From NCBI GenBank assembly GCA_029258885.1, contig JAPDJW010000009.1:32001-96000 (forward strand): a stretch of 64,000 nucleotides of DNA. Direction: 5' to 3'. The notes under the pieces are model-generated. The model made no database searches. It had not been told where the DNA came from and saw only the letters and a list, made by a program, of their open reading frames with translations. Source of the DNA: Thermoproteota archaeon. Its GTDB lineage: Archaea; Thermoproteota; Thermoprotei; Thermofilales; B9-G17. This document shows positions 10,882 through 64,000 of this stretch, piece by piece; positions within the stretch are counted from its first letter, which is position 1, and each line of letters starts with the position of its first letter. The translations under genes were made by a program, and so were the position numbers.

Positions 10882-13056
10882 ATGGATTCGTCCGGCTCCC
10901 TAGATTCAGGGGAGGAGGAACCACCAGATAAAATAAGGAAGATAATTGAGGATAAAGTTGGGGAGCCGGTAATCTACCTGGCTGAAAGCGACCTAAATAG
11001 GGACGGCTTCTTCGGTAGAGAATATCTAGCTGTAATCGACGGAAGAATACTAGTACTTAATCGAGACTATGAGATAATCGGCGAATATAGGCTGAGGGAT
11101 ATTGACTCAATTGAGGTCAGGGACTACCTGGGGGGAGGCGAGGTAGAGGTCGAGATGGCTGGACGCTACATAACGTTAATAAGATTCACGAGAAGCAAGG
11201 TCGATGAATTTAGGAAGCTCGTGAGAGTAGTATACGGAATAAAATACGGTGGTCTAAAGCCCGAATATCTAAATGAAGATTATTCGAGCAATAATAACTC
11301 CGCTAAGAAGACTGATACGTTAAGAAGGTTGCTGAAGTATCTGCTTCCATATAAGAAGCTTGGAGCTCTAGCCCTAGCTTTATCACTGATATTAACTGGA
11401 TTAAATCTAGCTCCACCATATCTATTTAAGATACTGATAGACGATGTTTTAACGGGCGGAAACGTAAGTCTCCTACCAAATATTATAGCCATGCTAATAG
11501 CAGTATACGCCCTGAAGACGATCGTCGATATAGGTAGAAGCTACATTCTATCGGTGTTAAGCCAGAAGGTAGTATTCGATATGAGGAAGGAGCTCTTCGA
11601 GCACATACAGAAGCTATCGCTAGGATTCTACGATAAATACAGCTCAGGCAGGCTACTCTCCAGAATAACCTCCGACACAAGCAGGATCATGTGGTTCCTA
11701 ACCTGGGGAGTCCAGTCGCTAGTAATAAACACGTTGACCGTAGTCGGCATAGGGGTAATAATATTCTCGATAGACTGGAGGCTATCGCTCTTCGCCCTAG
11801 CCCCCGTACCGATAGTAGTCGCTGGCATATACAAGTTCAAGAAGAAGTCCAGGAGAATATACCATAAGGCGTGGAGGAAATGGTCGGATGTAAACGTAAT
11901 ACTCGTAGACACAATTCCAGGAGCAATAGTAGTTAAATCCTTCAACAGGGAGGACTACGAGTTCAGAAGATTCATATCAAGACTCAGGGACGTAGTTAAG
12001 GCAAACATAAACGTAACCAAGTTGAGGCTAGAGTTCTTCCCAGCACTAGGATTCATAATGTCCCTGGGAGGAGCGGTAATATGGTGGATAGGCGGAATGG
12101 AGGTATTAAAGGGAACACTAACCCTAGGAACATTAACTGCCTTCATAAGCTACATGTGGCAGTTCTACGGACCAATCCAATCCCTAAGCAACCTCATACA
12201 GCCCCTACAGGAGGCGCTAACCTCTGGAGAAAGGGTATTTGAAATACTCAACGTAAAGCCTGAAATAGAGGACCAGCCGGATTCGGTGGACTTCGAGTTC
12301 AAGGGACATATAAAGTTCGAGAACGTATGCTTCGGATACGAGAAGTACGTAGATACGGTAAGGGACATAAACCTAGAGATAAGGCCGGGCGAGGTAGTAG
12401 GAATAGTCGGCCCAAGCGGCTCAGGCAAAACCACTTTAATGAAGCTACTACTGAGGTTCTACGATCCATCCAGCGGAAGAATACTAATAGATGGAGTAGA
12501 CATAAGGAAGATAAAGCTAAGCTCCCTCAGGAGGCAGATAGGGATAGTCCTACAGGAGCCAATATTATTCAGCGGAACAATAGCCCACAACATAGCCTAT
12601 GGAAAGCTTGATGCAGAGCCGGAGGAAATAATTGCAGCTGCAAAGGCCGCATACGCCCACAACTTTATAATGAAGCTACCGCTAGCCTACGATTCACCAG
12701 TAGGTGAGAGAGGCTCACGACTATCCGGGGGAGAGAGGCAGAGAATAGCCATAGCTAGAGCACTGATAACGGATCCCAAAATACTGATACTCGATGAAGC
12801 CACGTCATCGGTAGATACGATAACCGAGAGGCTAATACAGAAGGCGTTGGAAAACCTCATCAAAGGAAGGACGACGATAATAATTGCACACAGGCTATCC
12901 ACGGTAAAGAACGCCGATAAGATAGTAGTTATGCATAATGGAAGAATAGTTGAAGTTGGAACACACAGCGAACTACTGAGGAGAAACGGATTATATAAGA
13001 GACTGTGGGAGGCACAGTTCGAGGAAACAAAGGTCGAGGCAATAAAGGTGAGATAA
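10882..13056 (+). CDS. ABC transporter, fused permease/ATPase with N-terminal extension (DUF1854-associated type)
   Basis: Six-TM ABC_membrane region, Walker A GPSGSGKTT, LSGGERQR signature, ILDEATS; ~140-aa N-terminal PH-like extension. Confidence 0.93.
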   Translation: MDSSGSLDSGEEEPPDKIRKIIEDKVGEPVIYLAESDLNRDGFFGREYLAVIDGRILVLNRDYEIIGEYRLRDIDSIEVRDYLGGGEVEVEMAGRYITLIRFTRSKVDEFRKLVRVVYGIKYGGLKPEYLNEDYSSNNNSAKKTDTLRRLLKYLLPYKKLGALALALSLILTGLNLAPPYLFKILIDDVLTGGNVSLLPNIIAMLIAVYALKTIVDIGRSYILSVLSQKVVFDMRKELFEHIQKLSLGFYDKYSSGRLLSRITSDTSRIMWFLTWGVQSLVINTLTVVGIGVIIFSIDWRLSLFALAPVPIVVAGIYKFKKKSRRIYHKAWRKWSDVNVILVDTIPGAIVVKSFNREDYEFRRFISRLRDVVKANINVTKLRLEFFPALGFIMSLGGAVIWWIGGMEVLKGTLTLGTLTAFISYMWQFYGPIQSLSNLIQPLQEALTSGERVFEILNVKPEIEDQPDSVDFEFKGHIKFENVCFGYEKYVDTVRDINLEIRPGEVVGIVGPSGSGKTTLMKLLLRFYDPSSGRILIDGVDIRKIKLSSLRRQIGIVLQEPILFSGTIAHNIAYGKLDAEPEEIIAAAKAAYAHNFIMKLPLAYDSPVGERGSRLSGGERQRIAIARALITDPKILILDEATSSVDTITERLIQKALENLIKGRTTIIIAHRLSTVKNADKIVVMHNGRIVEVGTHSELLRRNGLYKRLWEAQFEETKVEAIKVR

Positions 13057-48294: not shown

Positions 48295-49446
48295 TTGAGG
48301 GTTACGGTATTTACTCTTGAATTCCCACCGAACATTTACGGTGGGGTAGGAGTACATGTATCCAATATTACTAGGATTCTAGCGAGATATTGTAGAGTAG
48401 AAGTTAGGACTATAGGTGAAAAATACTCCTCTGAAAACTACCATGGTGTTCATGTTAAGAGATATCCATGCTGGAGTGATCTGATTTCAAGGACATACGA
48501 GAAGTTTAGGCCCGTATTTAAGGCGTACAGTATCAGCTTAGCTGTAAATAGTGAGCCTATAGACTCGGATATAGTTCACTTCCACACCTGGTATATGGCT
48601 CTAGGAGGACTATACGCTAAAAAGCTGTATAATGTTAAGCTGGTGGCTACAGTTCATAGTTTAGAGCCTATGAGGCCGTGGAAGAGGGAGGCTCTTGGCT
48701 CGGGATATAATTTATCCATGTGGGCTGAAATTCAGGGATTAAAGGGGTGTGATGCAATTATAGCTGTAAGCGGGCAGACTAAGGAGGATATAGTAAAGTC
48801 CTACGGTATAAGCAGGGATAAAATACACGTTATACATAATGGGATAGACGCTGAAGTATGGAGGCCTGGAGAGGATCTTCGAGTGCTTGAGAGATACGGT
48901 ATAAGAAGGCCATATGCGCTATTTGTTGGTAGGTTATCGAGGCAGAAGGGGATTTTCACGCTGGTCGAGGCGGCCAAAATTGTTGGTGAGAATTGTCAGT
49001 TTGTCTTTGCTACGGGTAAACCTGATGAAAGGAGTATTCTCGAGGAGTTTAAGAGGAAAATTAGGGATATAGATAATATTGTCTGGATAAATAAGATGCT
49101 GAATATCAATGAATTAATTCCCTTATATACGATGGCTTCCGTATTTGTCTGTCCAAGTATATATGAGCCATTTGGCATAGTTAACTTGGAGGCTATGGCC
49201 ACTGAGACGCCAGTTGTGGCGAGTAGGGTTGGGGGAATACCAGAGATAGTTAAGGATGGAGAGACAGGGATTCTTGTTGAGCCGAATAACCCGGAGCAGC
49301 TTGCCGATGCAATAACTTACCTGCTTGAAAATCCTGAGGAAGCCGTAGAGATGGGGAGAAGAGGTAGAAGGAGGGTTCTTAAGGAATTTACTTGGGAGAA
49401 GATAGCCGAGAAAACATTTAAACTATACTGCAGCCTGTTGGACTAG
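48295..49446 (+). CDS. glgA: GT4 glycosyltransferase, actinobacterial GlgA/GlgM type
   Basis: EFPPNIYGGVGVHV, HFHTWY, HSLEPMRPWKRE.LG.GY..S.W.E, FVGR.SRQKG, CPSIYEPFGIVNLEAMA. Confidence 0.85.
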   Translation: MRVTVFTLEFPPNIYGGVGVHVSNITRILARYCRVEVRTIGEKYSSENYHGVHVKRYPCWSDLISRTYEKFRPVFKAYSISLAVNSEPIDSDIVHFHTWYMALGGLYAKKLYNVKLVATVHSLEPMRPWKREALGSGYNLSMWAEIQGLKGCDAIIAVSGQTKEDIVKSYGISRDKIHVIHNGIDAEVWRPGEDLRVLERYGIRRPYALFVGRLSRQKGIFTLVEAAKIVGENCQFVFATGKPDERSILEEFKRKIRDIDNIVWINKMLNINELIPLYTMASVFVCPSIYEPFGIVNLEAMATETPVVASRVGGIPEIVKDGETGILVEPNNPEQLADAITYLLENPEEAVEMGRRGRRRVLKEFTWEKIAEKTFKLYCSLLD

Positions 49447-50570: not shown

Positions 50571-51950
50571 GTGTCCTGTAGTAAGTATCTTTTAAGGATG
50601 TTTAGGATAGCTAGGTGGAGCAGTTTTCATGATGTAGCTGAGCTAGAGGTTTACATCGAGTGGATGAGAAGGCTTAAAGGAATGGATTTTACGGTATTTA
50701 GGGTAGAGGGCGACGGCAAGGTTGAGAGATACTATGTTCCATTAATATCCTCTAGCAGTATTCCTGAAGGATATCCTAAGGATAGAGCATATAAATTAAA
50801 TTCCCGCTACTTTCTAGAGGCTGAGTACTTTAAGGAGTATACATGGATTATATTTCAGTGCGAACTAGATTGCGACGAGCTGATCGTCAAAGGGAAGCTA
50901 GACCTCAACGACGAGTTTAAGGTAAAACCATTGAATGTAAGCACGACTAACTGTCTCAGTTACATTGGATCGGATACTGTCTCGTATGTTTTAAAGTCTT
51001 ATAGGAAGATACCTAGGGTTAATATTGAGGCTAAGATGCTCTGGAAGCTTACGAGAAGAGGCTTCAGAAATATCCCTAGGCTCTACCTTCAGCTTATACA
51101 TAGAAAGTATGGACCATTATCCATCTATCTCGAGTATGTAGATAGTCTAGGAGATGGCGGTTACCCGTTTGCAGGAAACTTTATTAACTACCTTGAGGGC
51201 AGAGAGCCCGTAGATGTTAAGCTGGCCCGAGAGCTCGGTAAAACCACCGCATACCTACATCTAAATCTTGTGGATCATTATGATGACTTCTTCAAGCCTG
51301 AAAGTATTTCAAGTCTTGACGTAGGGCTGTGGATTAAAAGGATCAAAGGCATCTACCTTAAATTCCGAGAAACTATCCCATGTAGTGGCGATAGGCTACA
51401 TTCAATCCTGGATCTATTTGAATTATACCTAGGCAGGATTAAGGCTAGGACTCATCAGGATTATCACTTAGCACAAATACTGTATGCTAGGGATGGCAGA
51501 TTTGTAATACTGGATTTTGAGGGCGAGCCTAATAGAAGCGACGAGGAGAGGCTCTTAAAGGAGCCATTCTTGAGGGATGTAGCATGTCTGCTGAGGAGCT
51601 TCGACTATCTAATAGCATTTACCCTAGCGTTTAAGAACGGAATTAGCCTTAGGGATGCATGTAATATCCTGCTTAACAAGGAGAAGAGAATATTTAACTG
51701 GTATAGAGAGGTATCCCTAAATCTCCTCGAAAGCTACATTAAAACACTCGGTCCAAAGACTGAGGAGGCTACTGGATTCGACCGAGGTACCTTAGAGGAT
51801 GAAATAGTGCAGCTTTTAGCTCCGTGGATGCTTGAGAAGGCGATATACGAGCTGAAGTACGAACACGACTATAGACCTGAGAATATTATTGTCCCTCTCA
51901 CGGGAATAAAGATGCTGCTTGAGGGAACTCATCCCATATATAGTTTATAA
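50571..51950 (+). CDS. Maltokinase (Mak/Pep2)-like kinase
   Basis: RELG...A.LH..L, RTHQDYHLAQIL, ILDFEGEP, LRDVA.LLRSFDY, LEKAIYEL.YE...RP....VPL.G. Confidence 0.8.
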   Translation: MSCSKYLLRMFRIARWSSFHDVAELEVYIEWMRRLKGMDFTVFRVEGDGKVERYYVPLISSSSIPEGYPKDRAYKLNSRYFLEAEYFKEYTWIIFQCELDCDELIVKGKLDLNDEFKVKPLNVSTTNCLSYIGSDTVSYVLKSYRKIPRVNIEAKMLWKLTRRGFRNIPRLYLQLIHRKYGPLSIYLEYVDSLGDGGYPFAGNFINYLEGREPVDVKLARELGKTTAYLHLNLVDHYDDFFKPESISSLDVGLWIKRIKGIYLKFRETIPCSGDRLHSILDLFELYLGRIKARTHQDYHLAQILYARDGRFVILDFEGEPNRSDEERLLKEPFLRDVACLLRSFDYLIAFTLAFKNGISLRDACNILLNKEKRIFNWYREVSLNLLESYIKTLGPKTEEATGFDRGTLEDEIVQLLAPWMLEKAIYELKYEHDYRPENIIVPLTGIKMLLEGTHPIYSL

Positions 51951-51969: not shown

Positions 51970-53268
51970 TTATAAATTAGCTATGTATCTTGTTGATTTC
52001 CCATAGCCTATCCTTTTAACCAAGTCAAGTTGAATAAGCCTATTAATTCTCCGAAGCACGGTATCTTTGCTTACACCCAACCTTGAGGCTAGCTGACTGC
52101 TCGATAAGCTTTCCTCGGCTACTAAATCCATTATTTTCCTTTCAATATCATCTAATGTGGCTACTATCCTGCTAAATGTTAACCTAGTTTCGAAGGAATC
52201 TAAACTATACGTAAGCTTTATCCTGCTTGCCGCACACAACTGTTTCATTCTAATAATCCCTACTCCGTACTTCTCCATAAAGCCCATATCATACATATAC
52301 TGGGATAATATGGGATTCCTAGGCTTATGGGTCGGCTTATCCGGCGAAACTCCGGGAGGGAATGAGCCCGGATTTATAAATACTATCTTAAAGGGGTAAA
52401 TGAACACCCTTACATCTCCCGGATCAAAGTAGTTCCTATGAGTTAGCGCGTTAACTAAAGCCTCCCTCAGAGCCTCCAGTGGATACTCGTACTTCTCAAT
52501 TCTCCTAAAGCCTACTATTGCACCCATCTTAGCCATATATTGCATCATGTAGTTTTCGAAATCCTCAACAATCTTCCATAGCGGGCCAGAGAAATCCCTC
52601 CTATCCATGTATTCAAGCATATCCTCGCCACGAAATACTATTAGCCTAACGTAGGCGTTTGGAATGAGGTCTTGAGGTCTATCGGAGAAGAATAGTATGC
52701 CAGCGTTAGTCGGTTTACCGTTAACGGTAGCACCTATAACTTCAAGTATTCTCCTGTACGGCAGCCTGGGTATATCCACGCCCCTGTTCCTACGCCTTGC
52801 CTCCAGATACATTTCAACATAATCCCTATTTATATCGCTGATATCGGCTCTAGTACATTTCTGCTGATCGAAGTTTATGAGAAGTCTTTCGGCAGCTAGG
52901 GAAACTATCTCTGAAGCCTGCAGTGGCCTGACGTTCCTACCGGACCTTATGTAAGTAACATAGCGGTAAGAATGTATCTCCTTAATCTCCTCAACCTCGA
53001 TAACGAGCACGAGCTTACCGTTAACTACATGCTTATATACCCTAAACCTGGGAGGAGGGGAAATTGATTGAACTACATCGGATATCTCCTGCGAAACATC
53101 AGGAGTACCGACTATATTCCCTCTATCGTCTACTCCTATCAAGATATATCCTCCATGGGTATTAGCAAAAGCACAGATAACCTTAGCTATCTCACTGGAA
53201 AACCTAGCCTTAAATTCTATCCTATCGCTCTCTCCCTTCTCGATAAGCTCACGAATATCTAGACTTAC
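51970..53268 (-). CDS. AlbA_2 (Schlafen-like) + HATPase_c_4 + C-terminal HTH protein; no canonical start codon
   Basis: The frame extends upstream of the track's 53142 start: SLDIRELIEKGESDRIEFK...CAFANTHGGYILIGVDD; also REALVNALTHRNY, NPGSFP, RNP.L, G.GI. No in-frame ATG/GTG/TTG precedes the domain (GTA at 53268). Confidence 0.85.
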   Translation of the reverse strand, partial: VSLDIRELIEKGESDRIEFKARFSSEIAKVICAFANTHGGYILIGVDDRGNIVGTPDVSQEISDVVQSISPPPRFRVYKHVVNGKLVLVIEVEEIKEIHSYRYVTYIRSGRNVRPLQASEIVSLAAERLLINFDQQKCTRADISDINRDYVEMYLEARRRNRGVDIPRLPYRRILEVIGATVNGKPTNAGILFFSDRPQDLIPNAYVRLIVFRGEDMLEYMDRRDFSGPLWKIVEDFENYMMQYMAKMGAIVGFRRIEKYEYPLEALREALVNALTHRNYFDPGDVRVFIYPFKIVFINPGSFPPGVSPDKPTHKPRNPILSQYMYDMGFMEKYGVGIIRMKQLCAASRIKLTYSLDSFETRLTFSRIVATLDDIERKIMDLVAEESLSSSQLASRLGVSKDTVLRRINRLIQLDLVKRIGYGKSTRYIANL

Positions 53269-53371: not shown

Positions 53372-55924
53372 TTATACTTTGCTCGTAGGCGAAAATCTAC
53401 GTACTGTACTAATCCAAAGAACTAGAAGCGCCACTACAACTATTGCAAAAACCATAATAATTACTACTATTGGCTCCAATGTAAACCCTATGGTGAATGG
53501 CTGTATTTCTCCTCCAGTACTCCCGAAAACTATCCTTATAGTTCCATCGCTATTCATAGAATACTTAAGCTTCACTAACCCCGTCTTATTATCGTATTCC
53601 AGGGATACCAGTTTTCCATTCAATATCGAAATATCGGCGGGTTTCCTACTAGTGTATATGATCAGGCTTTCAGACCCCTTCTTCACCTTAAGCCTGAGAA
53701 CCTTGCTCAATCTGTCGTACAGTAACTCCCTAAATACGACTTTCGAGAAAGGTATGAACTTCCCCTCAAGACCGAAGACGTAGAGACCATCATCTATCTT
53801 CGGACATATTATGAAATACTTTATCTCCATAGGGCCTATGGTTCCCTTAATGACGGTATTCGCATCTGCCAACATGATTTTCTTCTCAAAGAAGCTATAC
53901 ACTAGGGTCTTTCCCGTAACCCCTACCTCGGAAAGACTAAAGCTGAAGCTTCTACTATTGCTACGGTCAATGTTTATAACTGCAACATATATCCATGAAT
54001 ATCCGCTAACGTTGGAATACGTGTAGACGTAGAACACCTTCTCGATAAGCGGGTCATATGTGAAACATTTCTCTAACGGCAACGCTGGAACGTCGGGCTT
54101 TAAAACCTCCCAGTTACTATCAACAAGCATCAATAGAACATCCTTATCCACCACATCTGTTTTAACTAGGAACGCTACAGGACCGGCAGATAAAGACCTC
54201 AATAGGGCTTCCTGAATATAGTAAGGCTCCCTAAACCAACCAGCCTCAACGCTAGGCATCGGATGGAATTTATCCCAGAACGTATAAGCGCCCAACGACC
54301 AGGATAAAAGCTGAGTGAAGCTGTACTGATACCACTCCCAATCATTTCCCTTACCCATACCTAGGAACTCATAGTCGTTGCCACCACGAATAAATATAGT
54401 ATTAACGCTCTCGGGAAGCATCATATACCCCTTAATTCCAGGCATACAGCTCATAATCGAAATATTATACTCCGCAAACGCCTCACTCATGTTAATATAC
54501 CAGGAATCGAAGTAGCCGTATCTGCCCTGAAGCCATATGTGTCCAGCATCCTTCCTATACTCCTCGATAAAATAGTCCTGCCAAGCCACGCAGATGCCCC
54601 AGCTGGAAAAGTTCCTCGCAATATCATAGTAAATCTTAGCAGACCTCGGCCAGGCAGCCAGAACCCTGCCACCCTCGACATACTTGACCCAATCATACCT
54701 CCAGTAGTAGGAGGCGGCAGCTGGACACCAATGGGACATCCAGCATACCATAGGCAGATCGGTAGCCTCAACTATAACTTTAAGTCCATCCCAGCCATCA
54801 TTAGTAGCTACACGGTCAAACCCGAATGAGCTACAGCTCGGCTTCAAAGCCACCTGAGCTACACCCCATTTTAAAACAGGATCACTACCCAGTACCTGCC
54901 AAACATAGTTAGCAGTTGTCCCTGGCCTAATACCCTTTGACCTAAGATAGTTAACCATATCAATGTATTGTTCTGTGGCATTACCGGCATGGAGGATAGG
55001 CCATGCACACAAATACTTTAGGAAAATATTGTTCCACGGCTTAGGTGGATTGGGCTTACTGTAATAAAGCCTCATCAGGGAGCCCCATTTAAGCATCGTA
55101 TCTACTACGCCCTTATCTCCGAATACGATTATAGACGCCATCCTAGAGCTGAAGGGCACCTCCCTTATAGTGGAGTCGAGACATACTGCTATAGCCTGAA
55201 CTCCGTATTCAGTAACTTTTCTAACTAGCAGGTTTCCGAGAGGATAGAGGGGCGAGAGAATGGAATATATATCCCTAGAGTTATGTAGAATTAAGGGAGT
55301 TAATATCGTATACTCATTAATGCCTCTAAACCATTCCCTGAAGCCTTCCTCAGCCCTAGCTACGACCGTTCTAAGCCAATATTCATTATTCGGAGTATAT
55401 GCAAAGACGTATAGGTTTGAAACATTACACTTATGAGAGTAAAATATAGGAAATCTTATGGCAGCAATTTCTTCGGGGCCATAACATTTAAATGTATTAG
55501 CGAACAGCAATTCGAAAACTAATGCCGGCTCATCCTGATATACCTTAAATATCGTATAAAATGATAGAGTTAATCTCCTAACGGTTTTAAGATGCCAAAA
55601 AACTCTCAGACACTTGTATCTGCCTAGAGCATCACTTCCCTCTTTCTCTGTAACATCTACAATCCTAAACCTTTCCGACAGCTTTTTCTCTATAGGATTA
55701 TAGGATACATACCTAACTCCCTCCTCAAAGATGCTTAAGTATCCTAGTCCATAGAATGCATAGCCCCTATAGCTAACCTCATATGTTCCAGTTTTAGAGT
55801 TAAATAGGAAAGCAATATTGTGTTTAGTACTATTAATGATATATGTGCTGACATCTAATGCGAAAATACGTATAAGGCTAAGTAGCAACAATAAAGAGAG
55901 TATTGTTGAAAAGGCTTTACCCAT
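53372..55924 (-). CDS. Membrane-anchored glycoside hydrolase, GH36/Sip1 (clan D)-like
   Basis: Signal peptide and C-terminal TM; W.SHW, AWQDY (nucleophile position), SCM, IRGGNDY (acid/base position), WDKF, SLSAGPV, LKPD.PALP...C...DP. Confidence 0.6.
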   Translation of the reverse strand: MGKAFSTILSLLLLLSLIRIFALDVSTYIINSTKHNIAFLFNSKTGTYEVSYRGYAFYGLGYLSIFEEGVRYVSYNPIEKKLSERFRIVDVTEKEGSDALGRYKCLRVFWHLKTVRRLTLSFYTIFKVYQDEPALVFELLFANTFKCYGPEEIAAIRFPIFYSHKCNVSNLYVFAYTPNNEYWLRTVVARAEEGFREWFRGINEYTILTPLILHNSRDIYSILSPLYPLGNLLVRKVTEYGVQAIAVCLDSTIREVPFSSRMASIIVFGDKGVVDTMLKWGSLMRLYYSKPNPPKPWNNIFLKYLCAWPILHAGNATEQYIDMVNYLRSKGIRPGTTANYVWQVLGSDPVLKWGVAQVALKPSCSSFGFDRVATNDGWDGLKVIVEATDLPMVCWMSHWCPAAASYYWRYDWVKYVEGGRVLAAWPRSAKIYYDIARNFSSWGICVAWQDYFIEEYRKDAGHIWLQGRYGYFDSWYINMSEAFAEYNISIMSCMPGIKGYMMLPESVNTIFIRGGNDYEFLGMGKGNDWEWYQYSFTQLLSWSLGAYTFWDKFHPMPSVEAGWFREPYYIQEALLRSLSAGPVAFLVKTDVVDKDVLLMLVDSNWEVLKPDVPALPLEKCFTYDPLIEKVFYVYTYSNVSGYSWIYVAVINIDRSNSRSFSFSLSEVGVTGKTLVYSFFEKKIMLADANTVIKGTIGPMEIKYFIICPKIDDGLYVFGLEGKFIPFSKVVFRELLYDRLSKVLRLKVKKGSESLIIYTSRKPADISILNGKLVSLEYDNKTGLVKLKYSMNSDGTIRIVFGSTGGEIQPFTIGFTLEPIVVIIMVFAIVVVALLVLWISTVRRFSPTSKV

Positions 55925-56154
55925 AACTATGTGTTAGTATAATAGCAAAATAAGCTTAACGAAGCTTCTTACTTAAGGCGGTTGAAATCACAGAATCTAT
56001 ATGTAGCGTAATTCCTTTAAATACGTAAAGATAAAACTAAATGCATTAGCTAAAGTCGATAAATGGCGGAAAATCTTAGCAGCATTATGTTAAAACTTAT
56101 ATACTCTAAAGAATAGAATAATTTTGCATATTAGAGTTTTCGGGTGAAGATTTT

Positions 56155-57390
56155 ATGAGGAAGAGTATTTGGATTCTAGCATTACTGCTTTTATCGATAT
56201 CTCTGCCTGCTCTAGTCCGTTCGCAACCTCAATGGGTAACTATTACAGACAACACAATTGTAGCTGAGAACAACTATTACAAGATAACGTTCAACCTAGA
56301 AGTCGGTGGCAGGCTTTCAAGCTGGATAGTAAAGGCTATAGATAAGGATGTAGTTTCTCCCTATCTTCCATTCAACTTAGAGATAGCATTATACTCTGAT
56401 CCAAACGAAATGTATCCATATGCGCAGCAGTTTAAGCCTTGGACCGGAAAGATAACTACAGTTTCTGACGATGTGGTAGTAGTGGAGCTCTGGCCAATAT
56501 ACGACGAAAACGTAACGACACATCTAGAAGGTCTCCTCATAAACGAGACGGTAATATTCTATAAGAACAAGCCATACATAGACGTAATATTCAAGCTGAC
56601 AAACCCAACAAACGATACAGTATACTTAGCTGGCAAGGCTTGGAACTGGCTGGACTTCGGCTTCGGAATAAACATAAACTCCTATGTTGAGGGAGAATCC
56701 ACTGATGATTTCGTACAGATATTCTGTGTCGTAAACGCCACAGGAACATATATTGAAACTGGAAAATGGCATTGGGTAGGAATGGGTCCATGGAGCCATG
56801 GTGAGGGAGCATTCTTCCCATGGGCTGGAATAATAAACGAGAAGCTTAACATAATAGTAGCTGCAAGAGCCTTAGAGCCAAACGGAGTATGGCATATAAA
56901 CTTTGAGAGAGATTACTACGGCTCGCCTGCAATAAGAGCTATGCTAAGATTCAAATCCACATACATAGCTCCAGGAGGTTCAGTGACCTTCGCCTTCAGA
57001 CTAATAGCGACAACGATAGATGATGTACTAGGCACAGAGGAAGCTGGATTAATAGGCTTCGCCAACAAATATAACCCAGGAGCATATGAAGGATTAAAGC
57101 AAGCATCGGAGACAATAACACAGTTACAGTCCCAGATATCAAACCTACAGACACAGATTACACAACTTGAGGAGCAGGTAACAAGCCTACAGGATCAGGT
57201 AAACACTCTACAGAGTGAGCTTTCAGCTAAAACTAGCGAGCTTGAAACAACAAAGTCCGAGTTAGATAAGACAAAGAGTGAGTTAGCTCAGGCACGGTCG
57301 ATGCAGCCAGCGTACCTCGTAGGAGGCTTAATAGTAGGCATCATTATTGGAGTTATTGTAGCAAAATTCCTATTTAAGCCCAAAAAATAA
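56155..57390 (+). CDS. Surface protein: beta-supersandwich (aldose-epimerase/DUF4432-like) domain, coiled-coil stalk, TM anchor
   Basis: ENNYYKITFNLEVGGRLSSW, F.LTN motif, Q/T/S-rich heptads, TM plus KPKK tail. Confidence 0.65.
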   Translation: MRKSIWILALLLLSISLPALVRSQPQWVTITDNTIVAENNYYKITFNLEVGGRLSSWIVKAIDKDVVSPYLPFNLEIALYSDPNEMYPYAQQFKPWTGKITTVSDDVVVVELWPIYDENVTTHLEGLLINETVIFYKNKPYIDVIFKLTNPTNDTVYLAGKAWNWLDFGFGININSYVEGESTDDFVQIFCVVNATGTYIETGKWHWVGMGPWSHGEGAFFPWAGIINEKLNIIVAARALEPNGVWHINFERDYYGSPAIRAMLRFKSTYIAPGGSVTFAFRLIATTIDDVLGTEEAGLIGFANKYNPGAYEGLKQASETITQLQSQISNLQTQITQLEEQVTSLQDQVNTLQSELSAKTSELETTKSELDKTKSELAQARSMQPAYLVGGLIVGIIIGVIVAKFLFKPKK

Positions 57391-57480
57391 ATTTCTTTTT
57401 TATTACTAACTTATACGTATCCTGCGTGGGTCTTAAGGTGAGTAAAGTTTAAATTAATATAAAACTCTATATTTCTCAAG

Positions 57481-58593
57481 GTGATTTTTATGAATAAATC
57501 TATTACCGTGACTATACTTTTGCTAGTATTCACATTGTCCATGTTAAAACCTACATTAGTATATCCGCAACCTCAGGCTCTAGCGTATGTCGATAAGGGT
57601 AAGGTTGTACTTGAAAATGATGCTATTAAAGTATACTTTAAGCCTGATGAAGGAGCTAAAATAGTTAGGTGGATTGTAAAAACATTAGCTAATGTAACAC
57701 CCATAACTGAGTCTAGGTATCCATATGAATGGATACCTACCGGAACATGGCCAGGAGAAATATTTAGCGCAAACTTTACTTATCAAATAGTAAAGGAGTC
57801 CGGAGACGAGGCAGTAGTAGAGTTTAAGGTGAACCTAGCCACTGATGCCCCAGGATTGGAGTTCACGAAAATTGTTACCATAAAGGCAGGCGAACACTAC
57901 TGGATAAACATAACATACATCCTCGATAATAAGGGCACAGCGGCGCTCAAAATACAGAACCCACCCGCATGGGGAAGGAAGGCTGGCTTCATGATTGAAA
58001 TAGGCGCTAAAATAGGCCGCAACGATACTAATGATATTCAGATATGGAAGTTCGTCGGTCAGGATCCAATAATAACTAAAGAATCTTGGGTAGTATACCC
58101 ATTAGATAAAACTCCCACCGACACCGAGTGGATAGGATTATTTGATAATTCGACCGATGCCAATATGGTAGATAATGCAACCTATGGATTATTCATAGGG
58201 TTAAAATTGCTGGATCCGTCGGAGGGATGTTTTATATGGCTTGAGGCAGCGGCTGGGTGGACGTCCATTAGAACTGAGCTGAAGCCGCTCACCCTAGAGC
58301 CAGGCCAAGCTAAGATCTACAAGACTATATGGTACTGTGGTCCGATATGGAAGGAATACCTAGAGGAAGCAGGATTCAATGGAGTATTTGAAGCTATAAA
58401 GCCCTCAAACCTACCTGAGGAGCCTCCAGGGGAGAAGAAGGTTGAGGAGAAGCCTAAGGAAATTATACCACCAACAGCCTTACCGTTACAGCTTACATGG
58501 AGCAATATTGTATGGATAGTGGTTGGAATACTAGCTGCTGTAGGTTTCATATTCCTAAAGATTAAGGCCAGAAAGGCTAGGAGTACATCCTAA
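57481..58593 (+). CDS. Surface protein paralogous to 56155..57390 with Pro/Glu linker and TM anchor
   Basis: LENDAIKVYF.PDEGAKIVRW, ITY.LDN, LEPGQ...Y; EEPPGEKK linker; TM plus basic tail. Confidence 0.65.
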   Translation: MIFMNKSITVTILLLVFTLSMLKPTLVYPQPQALAYVDKGKVVLENDAIKVYFKPDEGAKIVRWIVKTLANVTPITESRYPYEWIPTGTWPGEIFSANFTYQIVKESGDEAVVEFKVNLATDAPGLEFTKIVTIKAGEHYWINITYILDNKGTAALKIQNPPAWGRKAGFMIEIGAKIGRNDTNDIQIWKFVGQDPIITKESWVVYPLDKTPTDTEWIGLFDNSTDANMVDNATYGLFIGLKLLDPSEGCFIWLEAAAGWTSIRTELKPLTLEPGQAKIYKTIWYCGPIWKEYLEEAGFNGVFEAIKPSNLPEEPPGEKKVEEKPKEIIPPTALPLQLTWSNIVWIVVGILAAVGFIFLKIKARKARSTS

Positions 58594-58605
58594 TAGGGTG
58601 AAGCA

Positions 58606-61600
58606 TTGAAAAAGTCTATTTTTATAATAGCCTTACTTATACTTACAATTGCCTTGAGGTTCGGTTTAGCCGATCCATCAGCTTCAGTCAGCATAGATGA
58701 CATCGTCGATTATGTTGAGAAGATAAATGGCTTTAAGCCTAGATTCACGGGATACGAGGGCTGTAGGGAGGCGGCTAGATATATCTTTAATGAGTTTTCA
58801 AAATACCTAGACAACGTTACCTGGGAGACCTACCCTATATTAATACCGTACGATGCTGGTTCCACATTGATTGTTAAAGTCGGCGGTGAGGAGTATTCCT
58901 TTAAGGTATATCCATTTCTACCCAATGATGTACAGACATGCTACGGAGAATATGAGGGAAAATTAGTCTACGTAGGGGATGCAAGCTATACTAGCCTGAA
59001 CGGTAAGGAACTTAATGGAAGCATAGCTGTAGTTGAATTAGACTGCTATATTAGCTGGGTTAGGCTGATAGACTTCGGAGTAAAGGCTGTAGTATTCATA
59101 CCTAAATATGATGTGAATAGGCTTCAAATGGAGGGTAAATACCTAGATATACCCGTAAAGTTTCCAAGAGCGTTATTATCGCTTAATGATAGAGAAAGGA
59201 TAATACGCTTACTTAGGGAGAATATGGAACTGGAAGCCAAGCTTAAAATAGGTATGAAGTGGGAGGTTAAGAGTTGTGACGTAATATACGGCTACATAAA
59301 TGGAGCAAGTAAACCCGATGAAGTGGTGGTGCTACTTTCCCATTTCGATTCCTACTCGTGGGCTCCATCTCTTCCCACGGGAGCTTCTGATGCAATAGGT
59401 ATATCGATACTAATGGAGCTTGCAAGAGTATTCTCTGTAAATAGGCCTGAAAGAAGCATACTATTCGTAGCTGTATCGGGACATTACCAGGGACTTTATG
59501 GCACGAGGATGTTTATTGAGAGACATATTTTAAATGAAAGCGATAGGCTCAATCTTCTAGCTTCAAATAAGAAGATCTTCGTAATCGATCTAAAAGTATT
59601 TGACGATGATTCCAGGGTATCCTTCCTATATGTCTCGTACTTCTATGATGCATCAACAGGAGGAATATCTGTTAGTGCTAGACAGAGGTACGTTGAAGTA
59701 GCTAAAGGTATAGACAAAGTACTAGACTATCTGAGCTCAAACATGCCTGAAGGCTTAGATGAGGAGTACATAAGTCACGAATATGAAATGCTGAGTATAA
59801 GTCAGGGAACAAACGATTGGCAGAGGTTATTTCCACGCCCAATACACATCGATGCTGAAGCATTCTTCAGGGTGGGATTAGCTAGCGTATGCTTTCATAC
59901 CGCATACAGCTTCAGAAAATATCTTGGAACGGAGCTTGATACACCGGAGAGGATAAACTGGGAAAACGTCCTGAAACAAGCGGTATTTATTGAAAGCGTG
60001 GTAAATACTATAGTAAACGATGTTAAATATGGTTTTTTTGAAAATTTAGTTTCAGGATTAGCTACAACTGGACCTAAGAGATCGGGCAGCTATGGTGAGT
60101 CATTTGGGGATTTTGTAGGCAAAATTGTCACATGGGATCCGGATAAGGCAAACTGGGTTCCATTGTCGGAAGCTGGGCTAAAACCAGCTATTGTCTCAAT
60201 TAGATTAGGCGGAGCTACCTTCTCCGGATCCCAGTGGAACGTAAGATTCTACCTATTAACTGATAAAGACGGAGTCTTCACGTTAAATGGTTCGCTCATA
60301 GGCTGGGGAGCCAGCTATGAGGTTAGAGCATACATAATGGATGAAAACTATAACATTATCTATGTTTCAGACTTCGGTAGGCATGGAGGTGAAGTCTGGT
60401 CCAACACTTTTCTCCTAAACGCTCCAATAGTGGGAAGCAAGGATAATCCAAGACTTTTTGTAGTATTCAAGGCATCCGGCATAGTACTGCCTAAAATACT
60501 GGATCCTCTAGTGGTATCCGAACCTCTCTCACAGTCAAACAACCTGTATCCGGATGGAGCATACGAGAACAGCTTTAGTATTGAAGTTCTAGAAGAGGAT
60601 ACGGGCGTACCCCCGGACGCTTACTCCTGGTATATGGATCCGAAGGGTATTGGAGTAGTATTTCTTCAACCCAACTCAAAGGCTCTCGTGGTAATGAGAA
60701 CTAAGGGAAGAGAATACCCGATAGGTTTCATAATAGTTAACTCAGGAGATGCTGGAACAGAAGCTATCTATACGAGATTTCTTGAGAGGATATCCTTAAG
60801 CGTTATGAAGCTAGCCTTAGAGAGGAGAAATAGGCTGAAGAGCTTTGGTGTAACAAACTATATGCTTGAAAAATTCATATCCATGGCTAGTGAAAAGGAG
60901 GCTAAACTCCAAGCCTTAATTGAAGATAAACGCTATGATGAATACTTTGTTGAGTCGGTCGATTTACTGGGGTTAGCATACAATTCATATGCCTTCTCCA
61001 GAGGCCTTTACATGGACGTGATACTCTCAACAGTATTGCTCTTCATACTAATACTTGTCTTCTCAATACTGCTCGAAAAGACTTTAACTGGAGATAAGAG
61101 TGCTAAAATAAGAGCGTTTTCGCTCATATCGATATTTACCGTAACTCTAGTAACCTTATCAATACTTCATCCGGGCTTCACTTTAGCAGCAAATATTATA
61201 ATGGTTGAAATAGGCTTCGTAATGCTACTATTCATAGGCTTAATACTATTCATACTATTCCTGGAGTTCACAGTCTTTCTCCAAACATATAGGAGGGAGA
61301 GGCTCGGCGTCCACTTCATGGAATCCAGAGGAATAGAGGTCGGAGTTCTAGCGATGTCCACGGGAACGGAGTACATGAAGAGGAGGAAAATTAGAACCCT
61401 ATTAACGCTAATATCGATAACAGTAATAGCGTTCGCTCTAGTCACCTTCACATCCGGACAGACGATGATCGTAATCACGCCTAAAGTTTTCGAGCCTGAA
61501 CTTAAGAAGACGCTATACAACGGCATACTCTTGGAGAGAATAGCTACCGTTAACAATCCTCTATCGATAGAGCTATACGAATACCTAAAAATCAAGCTTA

Positions 61601-63054
61601 AGAACATAGGATTAGCCACAATAAAAATATGGTCACTTCAGCCTAGGGGGGCGGCAGGCCAGCAGTTCATAATTCATGCAGTGGATCCGGCTACACTCAG
61701 GAAGATGGATATAAGGGGAATATATGGGCTTATGCCTGAAGAATACGAGTTAGTAGCTAAAAACATAACTCTCATAGAAGGCAAATGGTTTGACGAAACA
61801 GATGTATTTGTCTGTATTATACCCGAAAGCCTACACGAGCTGTTTGAACTGAACGTCGGAGACGAAATACTGATACAGGGGCTTAAGCTTAGGATTATAG
61901 GAATATTTAGCGATACATTGCTGGCGAACTTAAGGGAGATAGATAACCGCGAATTAACGCCAATAATAGGTAGCCAGGGAGGCCTTCCGATACATTCGCG
62001 TCCATCATACACGATTATAGTCCCGGTTAAGCTTGTGATCTATCAGCCATGGCTCACGCAGGGAGTAGGCGTAGACTTCCAGGTAGCGCAGATAACTGCT
62101 AGAGTTGAGGCAGATAAGGAGAGGCTAATGGATATAGCCGAGGAGATAGCGTTAACTCATCCAGGCTTCGATATATTCATAGGCTACGGCGACAAGATAT
62201 ACCACTTGAGTAAAAGAGCGGCGCTCCAGGTGGCTGGACTAGAGTATATGATCATACCCATCATAATTTCGGTATTAAATATTGTAACAATGGTTCTGGC
62301 AGCTGTCTACGAGAGAATGCGTGAAATATTTGTCTACTCTGCCTTAGGCCTAGCCCCGGTACATGTCGGACTAATGTTTCTAGCAGAGTTTTCAGTATAT
62401 GCCATATTTGGATCATTAGTCGGATACACTATAGCGGTAGCTTTCCTCAGAGCGTTTTCCGGCATGGTTGGAATATATCCGAACTATATATCAGCCTACG
62501 TAATGATGACGATAGGAATATCGGTACTGTCGGTACTCGTTGCAACGCTGTATCCAATGTTTAAGATAACTAGGATAGCATTACCTTCGTTAAAGAGGAG
62601 GTGGGAACTGCCCACAAAGCCCGCGGGTGATATCTGGAATATACCATTGCCATTTTTCGCATCCTCAAGAGAGGAGGCTATAGGGGTTCTATGGTATTTA
62701 GCTGAATTTGCTGCAATGCATAGAAGTGAGGAGTTCGGAAAATTTGTAGCAACAAATATCTCCGGAGCAATATCTGAAGATGAGATGGAGCTCAAATTTA
62801 GGGCAAGAATAGCTCCGTGGAGAGCAGGCATAGAGCAGGATGTAGCAATTAAGGCAATGTATTTCAAGGAGAGGAATAACTGGACGTTTAATCTCGTACT
62901 AAAGAGGATAAGTGGAGACTATAGGACATGGAGATCGGCCAACTACGTATTCGTGGATACTGTTAGGAAGCAGTTCCTGCTCTGGAGAAGCCAACCGCCT
63001 GAGAAAAAGAAGGAGTACTTCGAGAAGGGGCTTAAACGTTTTAGCGGAGGATGA
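58606..63054 (+). CDS. M28-like/PA extracellular domain fused to an FtsX-type permease
   Basis: RFTGYEG, PA-like insert, SHFDS, GASD..GISILMELAR, SGHYQGLYG; TM block; RRKIRTLLTL (FtsX), ERMREI..YSALGLAP.HV..MFLAE. Confidence 0.85.
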   Translation: MKKSIFIIALLILTIALRFGLADPSASVSIDDIVDYVEKINGFKPRFTGYEGCREAARYIFNEFSKYLDNVTWETYPILIPYDAGSTLIVKVGGEEYSFKVYPFLPNDVQTCYGEYEGKLVYVGDASYTSLNGKELNGSIAVVELDCYISWVRLIDFGVKAVVFIPKYDVNRLQMEGKYLDIPVKFPRALLSLNDRERIIRLLRENMELEAKLKIGMKWEVKSCDVIYGYINGASKPDEVVVLLSHFDSYSWAPSLPTGASDAIGISILMELARVFSVNRPERSILFVAVSGHYQGLYGTRMFIERHILNESDRLNLLASNKKIFVIDLKVFDDDSRVSFLYVSYFYDASTGGISVSARQRYVEVAKGIDKVLDYLSSNMPEGLDEEYISHEYEMLSISQGTNDWQRLFPRPIHIDAEAFFRVGLASVCFHTAYSFRKYLGTELDTPERINWENVLKQAVFIESVVNTIVNDVKYGFFENLVSGLATTGPKRSGSYGESFGDFVGKIVTWDPDKANWVPLSEAGLKPAIVSIRLGGATFSGSQWNVRFYLLTDKDGVFTLNGSLIGWGASYEVRAYIMDENYNIIYVSDFGRHGGEVWSNTFLLNAPIVGSKDNPRLFVVFKASGIVLPKILDPLVVSEPLSQSNNLYPDGAYENSFSIEVLEEDTGVPPDAYSWYMDPKGIGVVFLQPNSKALVVMRTKGREYPIGFIIVNSGDAGTEAIYTRFLERISLSVMKLALERRNRLKSFGVTNYMLEKFISMASEKEAKLQALIEDKRYDEYFVESVDLLGLAYNSYAFSRGLYMDVILSTVLLFILILVFSILLEKTLTGDKSAKIRAFSLISIFTVTLVTLSILHPGFTLAANIIMVEIGFVMLLFIGLILFILFLEFTVFLQTYRRERLGVHFMESRGIEVGVLAMSTGTEYMKRRKIRTLLTLISITVIAFALVTFTSGQTMIVITPKVFEPELKKTLYNGILLERIATVNNPLSIELYEYLKIKLKNIGLATIKIWSLQPRGAAGQQFIIHAVDPATLRKMDIRGIYGLMPEEYELVAKNITLIEGKWFDETDVFVCIIPESLHELFELNVGDEILIQGLKLRIIGIFSDTLLANLREIDNRELTPIIGSQGGLPIHSRPSYTIIVPVKLVIYQPWLTQGVGVDFQVAQITARVEADKERLMDIAEEIALTHPGFDIFIGYGDKIYHLSKRAALQVAGLEYMIIPIIISVLNIVTMVLAAVYERMREIFVYSALGLAPVHVGLMFLAEFSVYAIFGSLVGYTIAVAFLRAFSGMVGIYPNYISAYVMMTIGISVLSVLVATLYPMFKITRIALPSLKRRWELPTKPAGDIWNIPLPFFASSREEAIGVLWYLAEFAAMHRSEEFGKFVATNISGAISEDEMELKFRARIAPWRAGIEQDVAIKAMYFKERNNWTFNLVLKRISGDYRTWRSANYVFVDTVRKQFLLWRSQPPEKKKEYFEKGLKRFSGG

Positions 63055-63179
63055 ATATTATGGGTTTTAAATATATTTATAAATTCAATGGGATATTAAA
63101 GAAGTTTTCACAAAAACTTATATACTCTTAGAGGATATTATTATCTATCCATAACTAATATTAAGGAGGTTCTTTACGT

Positions 63180-64000
63180 ATGTCAGACTCCTCTGAATTC
63201 TTGGGTATTTCTAGAAAAGCATTCCTAACGGCTATATTAATCTCAATAATTCTACCGATAGTCCTGCAGCTTAACTACGCTCTCCTATTCCCGTACACGT
63301 ACGCTGAATGGGGATGGATGAAAGGGCCCTGGATAGTTGCGCTAATATTGGGTCTATTCATAGGACTCTTATCGCGAGTATCGAATAAGTTCAGGATAAG
63401 CAAGACGGACTTCACCGTAATATATGCAGCTATCCTCATATCCTCAGTATTCTACCTAGTACCATCATATACGTTAGGCTGGTTCACGTACATGGTTTAC
63501 GATGAAGGAAGGAGACTTAAGATACTTGGAGGAGAGGATGCACCTTTCATGCCGGATCTATGGGTTCCAAAGAGCATAGATGTACTCGTGGGAATGTTTA
63601 AGCCCGGTAGACCCTACGTACCGTGGGGCGCCTGGGCTGGGCCACTAGGATACTGGATAGTATTCTTCATAGCGCTAGGGCTAGTTCAAATAGGTATAGC
63701 AACAATACTGAGGAAACAGTTTATAGAGATTGAACGGCTACCCTTCCCTTACGCTATGGCGGGCATCGATATATGGCGGGCATCAAACATAGCTGGCTTT
63801 GAGGAGAGGCCCGGAAAGATATTCGGGATAAACTCCCTATGGCTCGGCGCGCTTCTAGCGTTCATACTGTATCTGCCGGGAGCCCTCGCATCCCTATCGG
63901 CTGGAGCTATAAGTCCACCACAGGCATACTGGGACAATATATGGCCTGGATGGGGGATCGATTTATCTCCAGTTATAACCTATAACGTTGCACTAAGAGT
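63180..64000 (+). CDS. Polytopic membrane protein, DUF6785/OPT-like (runs off window; absent from ORF track)
   Basis: ATG 63180 after GGAGGT; open to the window end; multiple TMs; P.LWVP, PWGAW..PL.YW, LRKQFIEIERLPFP motif. Confidence 0.75.
   Translation, partial: MSDSSEFLGISRKAFLTAILISIILPIVLQLNYALLFPYTYAEWGWMKGPWIVALILGLFIGLLSRVSNKFRISKTDFTVIYAAILISSVFYLVPSYTLGWFTYMVYDEGRRLKILGGEDAPFMPDLWVPKSIDVLVGMFKPGRPYVPWGAWAGPLGYWIVFFIALGLVQIGIATILRKQFIEIERLPFPYAMAGIDIWRASNIAGFEERPGKIFGINSLWLGALLAFILYLPGALASLSAGAISPPQAYWDNIWPGWGIDLSPVITYNVALR

Follow-up and report, generated by a model that had tools for sequence, protein, structure and literature searches.

Little is known about how oligosaccharides set free by surface glycosidases enter the cells of many heterotrophic Thermoproteota, and a group of genes at the end of a 64,000-nucleotide stretch of a Thermoproteota archaeon raises this question. 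The stretch (the window) covers positions 32001-96000 of contig C5 in a 2.1 Mb genome of 26 contigs that is 99.9% complete; C1, C2 and C4 below are other contigs of this genome. Its last genes encode anchored surface proteins, a 1482-amino-acid (aa) fusion of an M28-like/PA ectodomain with an FtsX permease (the giant) and a polytopic DUF6785-type protein, with no ATPase beside them. What does such an assembly carry, in which direction, and what drives it? The analysis was computational throughout, using sequence, profile, fold and gene-neighbourhood comparisons. The answer that we favour, with a confidence slightly above even, is that the genes belong to an alpha-glucan locus, one of eight substrate-specific uptake modules of the genome, in which a pair of OPT-like permeases is the importer and the giant serves as a mechanotransducer energised in trans.

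A putative alpha-glucan locus cut by the end of the window

The five open reading frames named in a preliminary description of the window were all found at exactly the positions that it gave. The same description proposed reading the sequence beyond 64 kb, and this proved informative. The end of the window cuts the locus, and the co-oriented, closely packed gene run carries on downstream with the rest of the DUF6785/6784 gene (ending at extrapolated window coordinate 65171), an OPT-like gene and two genes of glycoside hydrolase (GH) family 57, followed by a DUF6612 gene and a TrmB gene (Table 1).

The anchored 973-aa GH57 protein (GH57_973) has signal and anchor segments and a GH57 catalytic domain (PF03065, E 1e-28), and its catalytic region matches PDB 7e1y (E 3e-87), the amylopullulanase of Staphylothermus marinus F1 (PMC12106739). 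The cytoplasmic PSMA-like GH57 matches 4cmr, the maltose-forming GH57 of Pyrococcus (E 5e-7), and the TrmB regulator was recognised by its profile (E 3e-23). Because of the two GH57 matches, the window is read as holding the upstream half of a putative alpha-glucan (starch/maltodextrin/pullulan-type) utilisation locus of about 19 kb in a hydrothermal-vent Thermoprotei archaeon. The sequencing runs listed for the locus are hydrothermal-vent and sediment metagenomes, and no RNA dataset was found among them.

Eight paralogous modules and synteny with S. marinus

The genome contains 20 FtsX matches, including eight giants of 1471-1520 aa. Each of the eight giants is adjoined by an OPT-like gene and a DUF6785/6784-type gene, giving eight triads, and anchored stalk proteins or enzymes lie next to the giant in every module. 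The order DUF6785-then-giant was seen in 8 of 19 loci, with order and overlap kept. The other neighbours differ from module to module. They comprise GH130 with TrmB; GH94 with a glucoamylase-like protein; Melibiase/GH36 with GalK, GalT, GalE and PfkB; Amidase_2, AnmK and GHL10; GH3, a MurQ-like SIS protein, a BadF-type kinase and a diaminopimelate (DAP)-decarboxylase-like enzyme; DUF6259, a GH-like protein; and a C25 peptidase. These catabolic genes are largely of the cytoplasmic, oligomer-processing kind, and judging from family descriptions and general knowledge the phosphorylases, sugar kinases and AnmK/MurQ-like enzymes would act on imported oligomers. No other transporter was found within the eight modules. 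Since each module adjoins different enzymes for imported oligomers and no other transporter lies there, we infer a role in uptake for the triad and a likeness of the loci to polysaccharide utilisation loci (PULs).

The locus of S. marinus is syntenic, with a beta-sandwich protein, a giant, DUF6785, OPT and GH57. The preliminary description had likened the genes of the window to a PUL for oligosaccharides or glycopeptides, and the GH57 and TrmB genes, the eight triads with their varied catabolic sets and the synteny with S. marinus all agree with that view. Among 301 sampled genomes of the phylum, in which giants were scored by the giant-specific tail domain described below, the module is carried by 57 (about one fifth), with up to about ten copies per genome.

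Two adjacent triads at C1:190000-222000 (loci L019 and L020) are flanked by genes of the bacterial peptidoglycan-recycling type, encoding a secreted Amidase_2 protein, AnmK, a NagZ-like GH3, a MurQ-like SIS protein, a BadF-type sugar kinase, a DAP-decarboxylase-like enzyme and a C39-like peptidase. Because these genes flank two triads, they point to the scavenging of bacterial murein fragments by the archaeon.

The OPT-superfamily permease pair

The gene beginning at 63180 matches DUF6785 with E 1e-17 for its in-window part and 3e-30 at full length, and both PF20581 and PF20580 are found in the full 663 aa. The R.Q..E.ERL.FP motif that had been noticed in this polytopic protein is present as RKQFIEIERLPFP, with ERLPFP at 63732-63749, so that motif and profile agree. 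Its 632-aa neighbour passes the Pfam cut-off for OPT (PF03169, 33.9 bits against 25.8 bits), and the profile of the OPT-like family matches the solved OPT/YSL transporter HvYS1 (7wsr, E 1.3e-6). The DUF6785 and OPT-like families are full-length homologues of each other (hhalign probability 99.9, E 5e-32; 17% identity) that share an E[RK]LPFP motif. A word-index search with the DUF6785 protein returned five relatives, the closest named one being Smar_1399 of S. marinus. Smar_1400 is listed simply as an OPT peptide transporter in the S. marinus genome paper (PMC2678158).

Genomes of the G057 type (family f16) have a single giant and about 20 solitary DUF6785 genes. Those of G057 loci L061-L064 adjoin genes for soluble proteins of about 440-500 aa, and in this lineage the permease genes have multiplied without the giant.

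Architecture and conservation of the giant

The preliminary description had read the 1482-aa protein as an M28-like/PA ectodomain joined to an FtsX permease, and profile, structure and fold comparisons all led to the same architecture. Peptidase_M28 (PF04389) was matched with E 5e-13 at residues 229-311 and FtsX (PF02687) with E 3.3e-8 at residues 1216-1324 (34 bits against a cut-off of 25.5 bits), while MacB_PCD reached 26.1 bits at residues 952-1104, just under its 27-bit cut-off. Against the PDB, the giant matched 2ek8 (E 9e-13) and, over residues 1158-1313 only, MacB 5lil (E 0.004). Hydropathy gave about nine transmembrane (TM) segments. The ectodomain model (pLDDT 85, pTM 0.87) has an M28 alpha/beta domain, into which a PA-type beta domain is inserted, followed by beta-sandwiches and a three-helix stalk, and Foldseek retrieved the PA-domain M28 aminopeptidase 2ek8, the transferrin receptor and GCPII with E 1e-21 to 1e-23. 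A word-index search with the ectodomain returned nine relatives.

Compared with 2ek8, the giant retains both the HxD motif and the acidic residue that bridges, whereas AEENGL aligns to SGHYQGL, replacing Glu-Glu with His-Tyr. The catalytic Glu-Glu pair was found in none of ten giants aligned; eight have H-[WY] and two Y-[HY] at this place. Because the pair is missing from all ten, the ectodomain is predicted to be a pseudo-peptidase by the canonical criterion, a loss that we take to be like that in the inactive M28-fold members transferrin receptor and nicalin. The motif that replaces Glu-Glu is highly conserved among the giants, so the altered site probably still binds something, and the conserved His-Trp/Tyr may form a modified metal or ligand site.

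A conservation profile was computed over the same ten giants, which are about 27% identical overall. Its three highest peaks are all cytoplasmic: a segment after TM4 (about residue 1334), one in the tail (about 1456) and, third, the TM2-TM3 loop with the coupling helix ERMREI. The ectodomain at 312-804 and the putative periplasmic core domain are least conserved. This is the pattern expected for a common cytoplasmic partner combined with variable substrate-facing parts, and the cytoplasmic peaks are hard to square with the loss of an ATPase. A coupling-helix motif of the ER..EI type is present in 10 of 10 giants, and also in the small and mini FtsX proteins.

Two parts of the giant lie outside the FtsX unit. 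The TM helices at residues 805-885 are moderately conserved among giants and absent from canonical MacB/LolC, and they are a candidate contact site for the OPT-like proteins. The cytoplasmic tail has motifs that hardly vary, which lie directly behind TM4 and close to the C-terminal end; a hidden Markov model (HMM) search of this genome found it in the eight giants only, and no relatives were found in the PDB or the ESM Atlas. The tail was also considered as a marker of every client of the ATPases described below and rejected, as FtsX proteins of about 950-1350 aa without a tail occur.

A 1490-aa M28-FtsX giant annotated as 'M28 family peptidase' is present in a bacterial metagenome-assembled genome (MAG) of Candidatus Hydrogenedentes, at a contig edge where its context is uninformative. 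The architecture thus reaches beyond Archaea.

Search for the ATPase

The genome has 47 ABC_tran matches, all of them outside the modules. Each of the three FtsX genes of about 390 aa adjoins an ATPase. The preliminary description saw no ATP-binding cassette (ABC) ATPase in the window. One ABC ATPase domain is in fact present, in a 724-aa ABC_membrane+ABC_tran fusion (10882-13056, +), but this is a fused exporter 45 kb away, unrelated to the locus, and was rejected as a partner. Two downstream ATPases on the other strand (C5:106850-110364) were likewise rejected as fused ABC_membrane+ABC_tran exporters that are not MacB-type, as was an ATPase near another module (C4:109347) that belongs to an ArsR/ATPase/ABC-2 unit. 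A cognate LolD/MacB-type ATPase just downstream, which would have made the locus an ordinary ABC system, was looked for and is not there.

The locus of S. marinus gave a lead. There, two ATPases and a 183-aa FtsX gene are encoded on the other strand about 7 kb downstream of the giant, beginning about 0.6 kb past the GH57 gene and a 183-aa gene that end the run of the triad. The gene order is mini-FtsX, ATPase_B, ATPase_A, and both ATPases score best as LolD/MacB. Their orthologues in the present genome, at C2:342683 and C2:376287, share 73-76% identity with them, compared with 30-37% for the proteins of the triad. Where a genome has just one triad (G085, G098, G173 and the Staphylothermus genome G046), ATPase_B is encoded 2-7 kb away from it. 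Among the matches listed for ATPase_A, bacterial LolD-type ATPases reach at most 55% identity and no named archaeal loci occur.

Across the 301 genomes, the ATPase scores were bimodal, with a high class at 63-83% identity and the rest at or below 59%. A high-class ATPase was present in 57 of 58 DUF6785-positive genomes and in 55 of 57 tail-carrying genomes (the two exceptions are 70% and 89% complete) as against 14 of 244 others, counts that describe an association without testing one since the genomes are related. In families f2 and f10, the ATPases are confined to the genera that have giants. Five of the genomes with ATPases and no giants were examined: three have single-FtsX proteins of 945-1020 aa, one of these directly beside the ATPase/mini-FtsX pair, one has double-FtsX proteins and one has no FtsX protein above 430 aa. 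Five genomes without these ATPases have FtsX genes of 384-504 aa only. As most of the examined genomes with the ATPases alone have large FtsX proteins and the five lacking the ATPases only small ones, the ATPase/mini-FtsX set seems to accompany FtsX proteins with large ectodomains in general.

A predicted complex of giant residues 886-1482 with ATPase_A, made from shallow alignments, gave weak support, with an ipSAE of 0.53 (0.53-0.54 in three runs; best control 0.00), a partner pLDDT of at least 77 and agreement between runs in at least 60% of contacts. In calibration, 58 of 80 solved complexes came up to this mark, as did 2 of 110 mismatches, and passes at or below 0.60 were wrong more often than right unless the pair was likely beforehand. 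Since MacB-type complexes of permease and nucleotide-binding domain (NBD) have already been solved, the pass may reflect likeness only, and the predicted docking was counted as evidence neither way.

The ATPase missing from the locus is thus most likely a shared one encoded elsewhere, as far as gene content and conservation can indicate. The earlier suggestion of an ATPase-independent or ion-driven machine was not borne out, given the conserved LolD/MacB-type ATPases elsewhere in the genome, their linkage to single triads, their co-occurrence with giants and the retained coupling helix. The system is not an ordinary ABC system either.

At C1:604586-605476, beside a 283-aa FtsX gene, a LolD-type ATPase frame is broken by TAA stops; this is probably a decayed small FtsX/ATPase pair.

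Surface proteins and neighbouring genes

Table 1. Genes and protein segments of the locus, its upstream neighbours and the two unlinked ATPases. Plain numbers are window coordinates; an L003 coordinate plus 52999 gives the window coordinate; entries marked C are contig coordinates.
Feature	Length (aa)	Position	Strand	Remarks
GT4 glycosyltransferase		48295-49446	+	upstream; weak starch-synthase-type match
Protein without Pfam match	459	50571-51950	+	upstream
Schlafen/AlbA_2 protein	390	51970-53142	-	Schlafen/AlbA_2 + HATPase_c_4 + C-terminal winged helix; directly adjoins GH36-like gene
GH36/Sip1-like glycosidase	850	53372-55924	-	N-terminal signal/anchor; C-terminal TM helix
Surface protein	411	56155-57390	+	signal/anchor, N-terminal domain, coiled-coil stalk ~305-390, C-terminal TM anchor
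Anchored protein	370	57481-58593	+	residues ~38-300 homologous to N-domain of downstream anchored GH57
Giant M28/PA-FtsX fusion	1482	58606-63054	+
Giant: signal/anchor		residues 1-22	+
Giant: M28-like+PA ectodomain		residues ~23-480	+
Giant: beta-sandwich domains and three-helix stalk		residues ~480-804	+
Giant: three extra TM helices		61018-61260; residues 805-885	+
Giant: FtsX TM1		residues 931-949	+
Giant: putative MacB-type periplasmic core domain		residues ~950-1215	+
Giant: FtsX TM2-4		residues 1216-1320	+
Giant: coupling helix ERMREI		residues ~1236-1241	+
Giant: cytoplasmic C-terminal domain (tail)	~160	62566-63051; residues 1321-1482	+	novel; giant-specific
DUF6785+DUF6784 protein	663	63180-64000 in window; full gene L003:10181-12172	+	first 273 codons in window; ~13 TM
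OPT-like protein	632	L003:12183-14081	same as triad	past window
Anchored GH57 (GH57_973)	973	L003:14149-17070	same as triad	past window
PSMA-like GH57	636	L003:17082-18992	same as triad	past window; cytoplasmic
DUF6612 protein	293	L003:18989-19870	-	past window; convergent
TrmB regulator	258	C5:104944-105720	-	past window
LolD/MacB-type ATPase	246	C2:342683		orphan among housekeeping genes
LolD/MacB-type ATPase	240	C2:376287		adjoins only a 220-aa four-helix FtsX without ectodomain (mini-FtsX)

The 850-aa protein itself gave no Pfam match. An exhaustive HMMER search found 337 distant relatives, Raffinose_syn was matched by 11 of 36 aligned relatives, and the family profile matches the GH36 enzyme AtRS6 (7exf, E 1e-14). 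The AlphaFold model (pLDDT 86) also has 7exf as its best Foldseek match (E 9e-29, target-normalised TM-score 0.70), followed by GH97, GH36 and GH31 structures, and Asp450, Asp517 and Asp551 are invariant across the 36-sequence alignment. The GH36/Sip1-like identity first suspected from the letters is thus upheld by relatives, profile and fold. A word-index search returned two relatives, the sole close one (97% identical) coming from a 'Thermoprotei archaeon' MAG. The place of this divergently transcribed gene in the module is uncertain, because the syntenic locus of S. marinus lacks it.

The 411-aa and 370-aa proteins had been described as paralogous anchored beta-sandwich proteins. Anchoring is supported by the hydrophobic segments at both termini, as in the 850-aa protein. 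Paralogy also stands but is weak (blastp E 9e-6, 29% over about 200 aa), and the proposed beta-sandwich fold draws on the homology of the 370-aa protein with the N-domain of GH57_973 (blastp E 6e-19). YidC_periplas is matched by that N-domain with E 3.7e-6 and weakly by the 370-aa protein (E 0.0015). The latter, whose S. marinus counterpart has 607 aa (31% identity, E 8e-21) and for which an ESM Atlas feature search gave weak leads only, all below 0.9, is a putative alpha-glucan-binding beta-supersandwich. For the 411-aa protein, Pfam gave coiled-coil noise only (residues 300-390), while a 515-aa stalk protein of the module at C1:79023 was matched with blastp E 1.6e-8.

Several neighbours deserve mention. 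The DUF6612 protein is membrane-anchored and has eleven consecutive prolines at its N-terminus ahead of the TM helix. The Schlafen/AlbA_2 protein may be a candidate regulator. A GT4 gene lies upstream of the locus, and the syntenic triad of S. marinus is preceded by genes for a glycogen synthase and a GH57 glucanotransferase, so genes for alpha-glucan synthesis and uptake may be neighbours by descent.

Proposed mechanism and competing explanations

In the mechanism that we favour, the membrane-anchored GH57, of the amylopullulanase type by homology, would cleave alpha-glucan outside the cell, and the two anchored stalk proteins, one of which shares the N-terminal domain of this enzyme, probably bind the polymer. 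The oligosaccharides would cross the membrane through the DUF6785/6784 and OPT-like pair, probably a heterodimer and probably driven by the proton-motive force, by analogy with OPT transporters. The giant would act as a type VII (MacB/LolC/FtsX-class) ABC mechanotransducer, whose non-catalytic M28/PA ectodomain may capture or hand over substrate, or position enzymes. All giants would be energised in trans by the two shared LolD/MacB-type ATPases, with the 220-aa mini-FtsX possibly forming the second half of an asymmetric permease dimer, an idea based on the joint conservation of two different ATPase paralogues and on the order mini-FtsX, B, A in S. marinus. Inside the cell, the maltose-forming-type GH57 would complete degradation; the TrmB regulator, identified by homology, is encoded beside the locus.

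A more specific version, which we offer tentatively and well short of even confidence, is that the giant and the common mini-FtsX form an asymmetric type VII mechanotransducer which, driven by a heterodimer of the shared LolD-type ATPases, physically loads or gates a heterodimeric OPT-superfamily channel. This would be a hybrid importer using both ATP and proton-motive force, free of binding proteins, for oligosaccharides, muropeptides and peptides, and its interchangeable modules would be the archaeal counterpart of PULs.

Several observations weigh against import powered in trans. To our knowledge, the established substrates of OPT transporters are peptides and metal chelates, sugars not being among them, and the MacB-class machines that have been characterised expel, extract or activate, with none known to assist import. 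The coupling of giant and permeases is inferred from adjacency alone, and the stand-alone DUF6785 genes of the G057-type genomes imply that OPT-like permeases need no adjacent giant. The ATPases are not dedicated to giants, because 14 genomes carry them without giants, and one of these, G240, has no FtsX protein above 430 aa; moreover, the co-occurrence does not count independent events. Finally, the GH36-like gene and the upstream GT4 gene fit poorly with a simple starch story.

Of the alternatives, we regard as unlikely, though the best of them, that the OPT-like pair imports alone while the giant, like FtsEX, uses ATP-driven motion at the cell surface or S-layer, by which the stalk proteins and anchored glycosidases would be activated, positioned or released. 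Systems of the FtsEX type control hydrolases outside the cytoplasm, the M28/PA fold without catalytic activity serves the transferrin receptor and nicalin as a platform for binding proteins, and anchored stalk proteins or enzymes lie next to every giant; the stand-alone genes of G057 also show that the permeases can work alone. The arrangement of the genes points the other way, since the giant almost always directly adjoins permease genes, not enzymes, with triads in 8 of 8 modules.

Improbable in our estimation is a triad that is ATPase-independent and ion-driven, the FtsX fold being a passive scaffold or an element coupled to proton-motive force on which no NBD docks. OPT relatives (Transporter Classification, TC, 2.A.67) are secondary transporters, no ABC ATPase lies in or beside any of the eight modules, and the unique cytoplasmic tail could stand in for an NBD partner. 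Yet the coupling-helix motif, among the most conserved segments, is kept in all ten giants, and an orphan LolD-type ATPase exists; the ATPases are linked to a triad in S. marinus, G085, G098 and G173 and follow the giants across the phylum.

Very improbable is export or flipping of a glycan, glycolipid or surface-protein cargo by MacB-like expulsion. Characterised MacB-class systems act outward, and the GT4 gene upstream of the locus and the glycogen synthase upstream in S. marinus could point to synthesis; against this, the flanking enzymes (GH130/GH94, GalK/GalT, AnmK/MurQ-like and the cytoplasmic PSMA-like GH57) need imported oligomers, TrmB sugar regulators flank modules, and the extracellular hydrolases carry signal and anchor segments. 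Scarcely credible is a peptide system in which the M28 domain has aminopeptidase activity at the cell surface and supplies an OPT oligopeptide transporter. In its favour are the naming of the OPT family for oligopeptides, the C25 peptidase beside one module and the annotation of Smar_1400 as a peptide transporter (PMC2678158); against it, the catalytic Glu-Glu pair occurs in 0 of 10 giants, and the neighbours of this locus, as of most others, are glycoside hydrolases, sugar kinases and TrmB.

Novelty and significance

No paper mentioning DUF6785 was found in the literature searched, and none describing the system in the literature on FtsX, M28, OPT or MacB in archaea. The parts belong to known superfamilies; their combination and its deployment are undescribed. 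If import powered in trans is correct, OPT-superfamily permeases gain sugar and muropeptide substrates, MacB-class mechanotransducers gain a role on the import side, and shared in-trans ATPase sets serving many client permeases extend from the MalK type to the LolD type. Here, annotation as 'M28 family peptidase' or 'OPT peptide transporter' probably misleads. Because cultured S. marinus F1 has a syntenic copy, beside its biochemically characterised amylopullulanase, the hypothesis is directly testable.

Comparison with known systems

The closest relatives of the giant are the type VII ABC systems (MacB, LolCDE and FtsEX), with which it shares the FtsX four-helix unit and the ER.REI coupling helix, besides the weak sequence match to MacB 5lil and a putative core domain between TM1 and TM2, LolD/MacB-type ATPases being present in the genome. 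Unlike them, it carries some 900 additional residues at the N-terminus, three TM helices beyond the usual four and a cytoplasmic tail of 160 aa that is novel. It has no adjacent ATPase but apparently draws on shared ATPases and an ectodomain-less mini-FtsX, and the genes that accompany it encode glycoside hydrolases and two OPT-like permeases, in an archaeal context of import, not of expulsion or extraction.

A shared ATPase has precedents in MsiK of Streptomyces and MsmX of Bacillus, 'multitask' MalK-type ATPases that serve type I importers with binding proteins. As would be the case here, an unlinked ATPase serves many ATPase-less permease operons and is far more conserved than its clients. 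In contrast, the present ATPases are LolD/MacB-type, comprise two paralogues and come with a mini-FtsX, and their service to the giants is a proposal.

The ectodomain shares its protease-like plus apical/PA architecture with the transferrin receptor, nicalin and GCPII. It differs in being fused to an FtsX permease, in partly retaining the HxD motif and the bridging Asp/Glu, and in having a conserved His-Trp/Tyr in place of Glu-Glu. The permeases resemble the OPT/YSL family (TC 2.A.67; HvYS1, 7wsr) in the Pfam OPT cut-off passed by the 632-aa protein, the 7wsr match and the E[RK]LPFP motif, but they are very divergent and form an adjacent heterologous pair, and their genomic context would imply oligosaccharide or muropeptide substrates and not peptides or metal chelates.

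As a whole, the locus is most like the SusC/SusD PULs of Bacteroidota and the PULs of Gram-positive bacteria, which also occur as several paralogous loci per genome with surface binding proteins, surface and cytoplasmic carbohydrate-active enzymes (CAZymes), a dedicated transporter and a regulator. The transporter core is different, consisting of an FtsX giant and two OPT-like proteins and not of an ABC importer with a solute-binding protein; no SusC or SusD family was among the Pfam matches of the locus genes scanned, no search aimed at SusC/SusD having been made. Since an archaeon has no outer membrane, the strict Bacteroidota term applies by analogy only. In the broad sense of a PUL, the locus combines co-localised CAZymes, surface binding proteins, a transporter and a regulator, in multiple substrate-specific copies.

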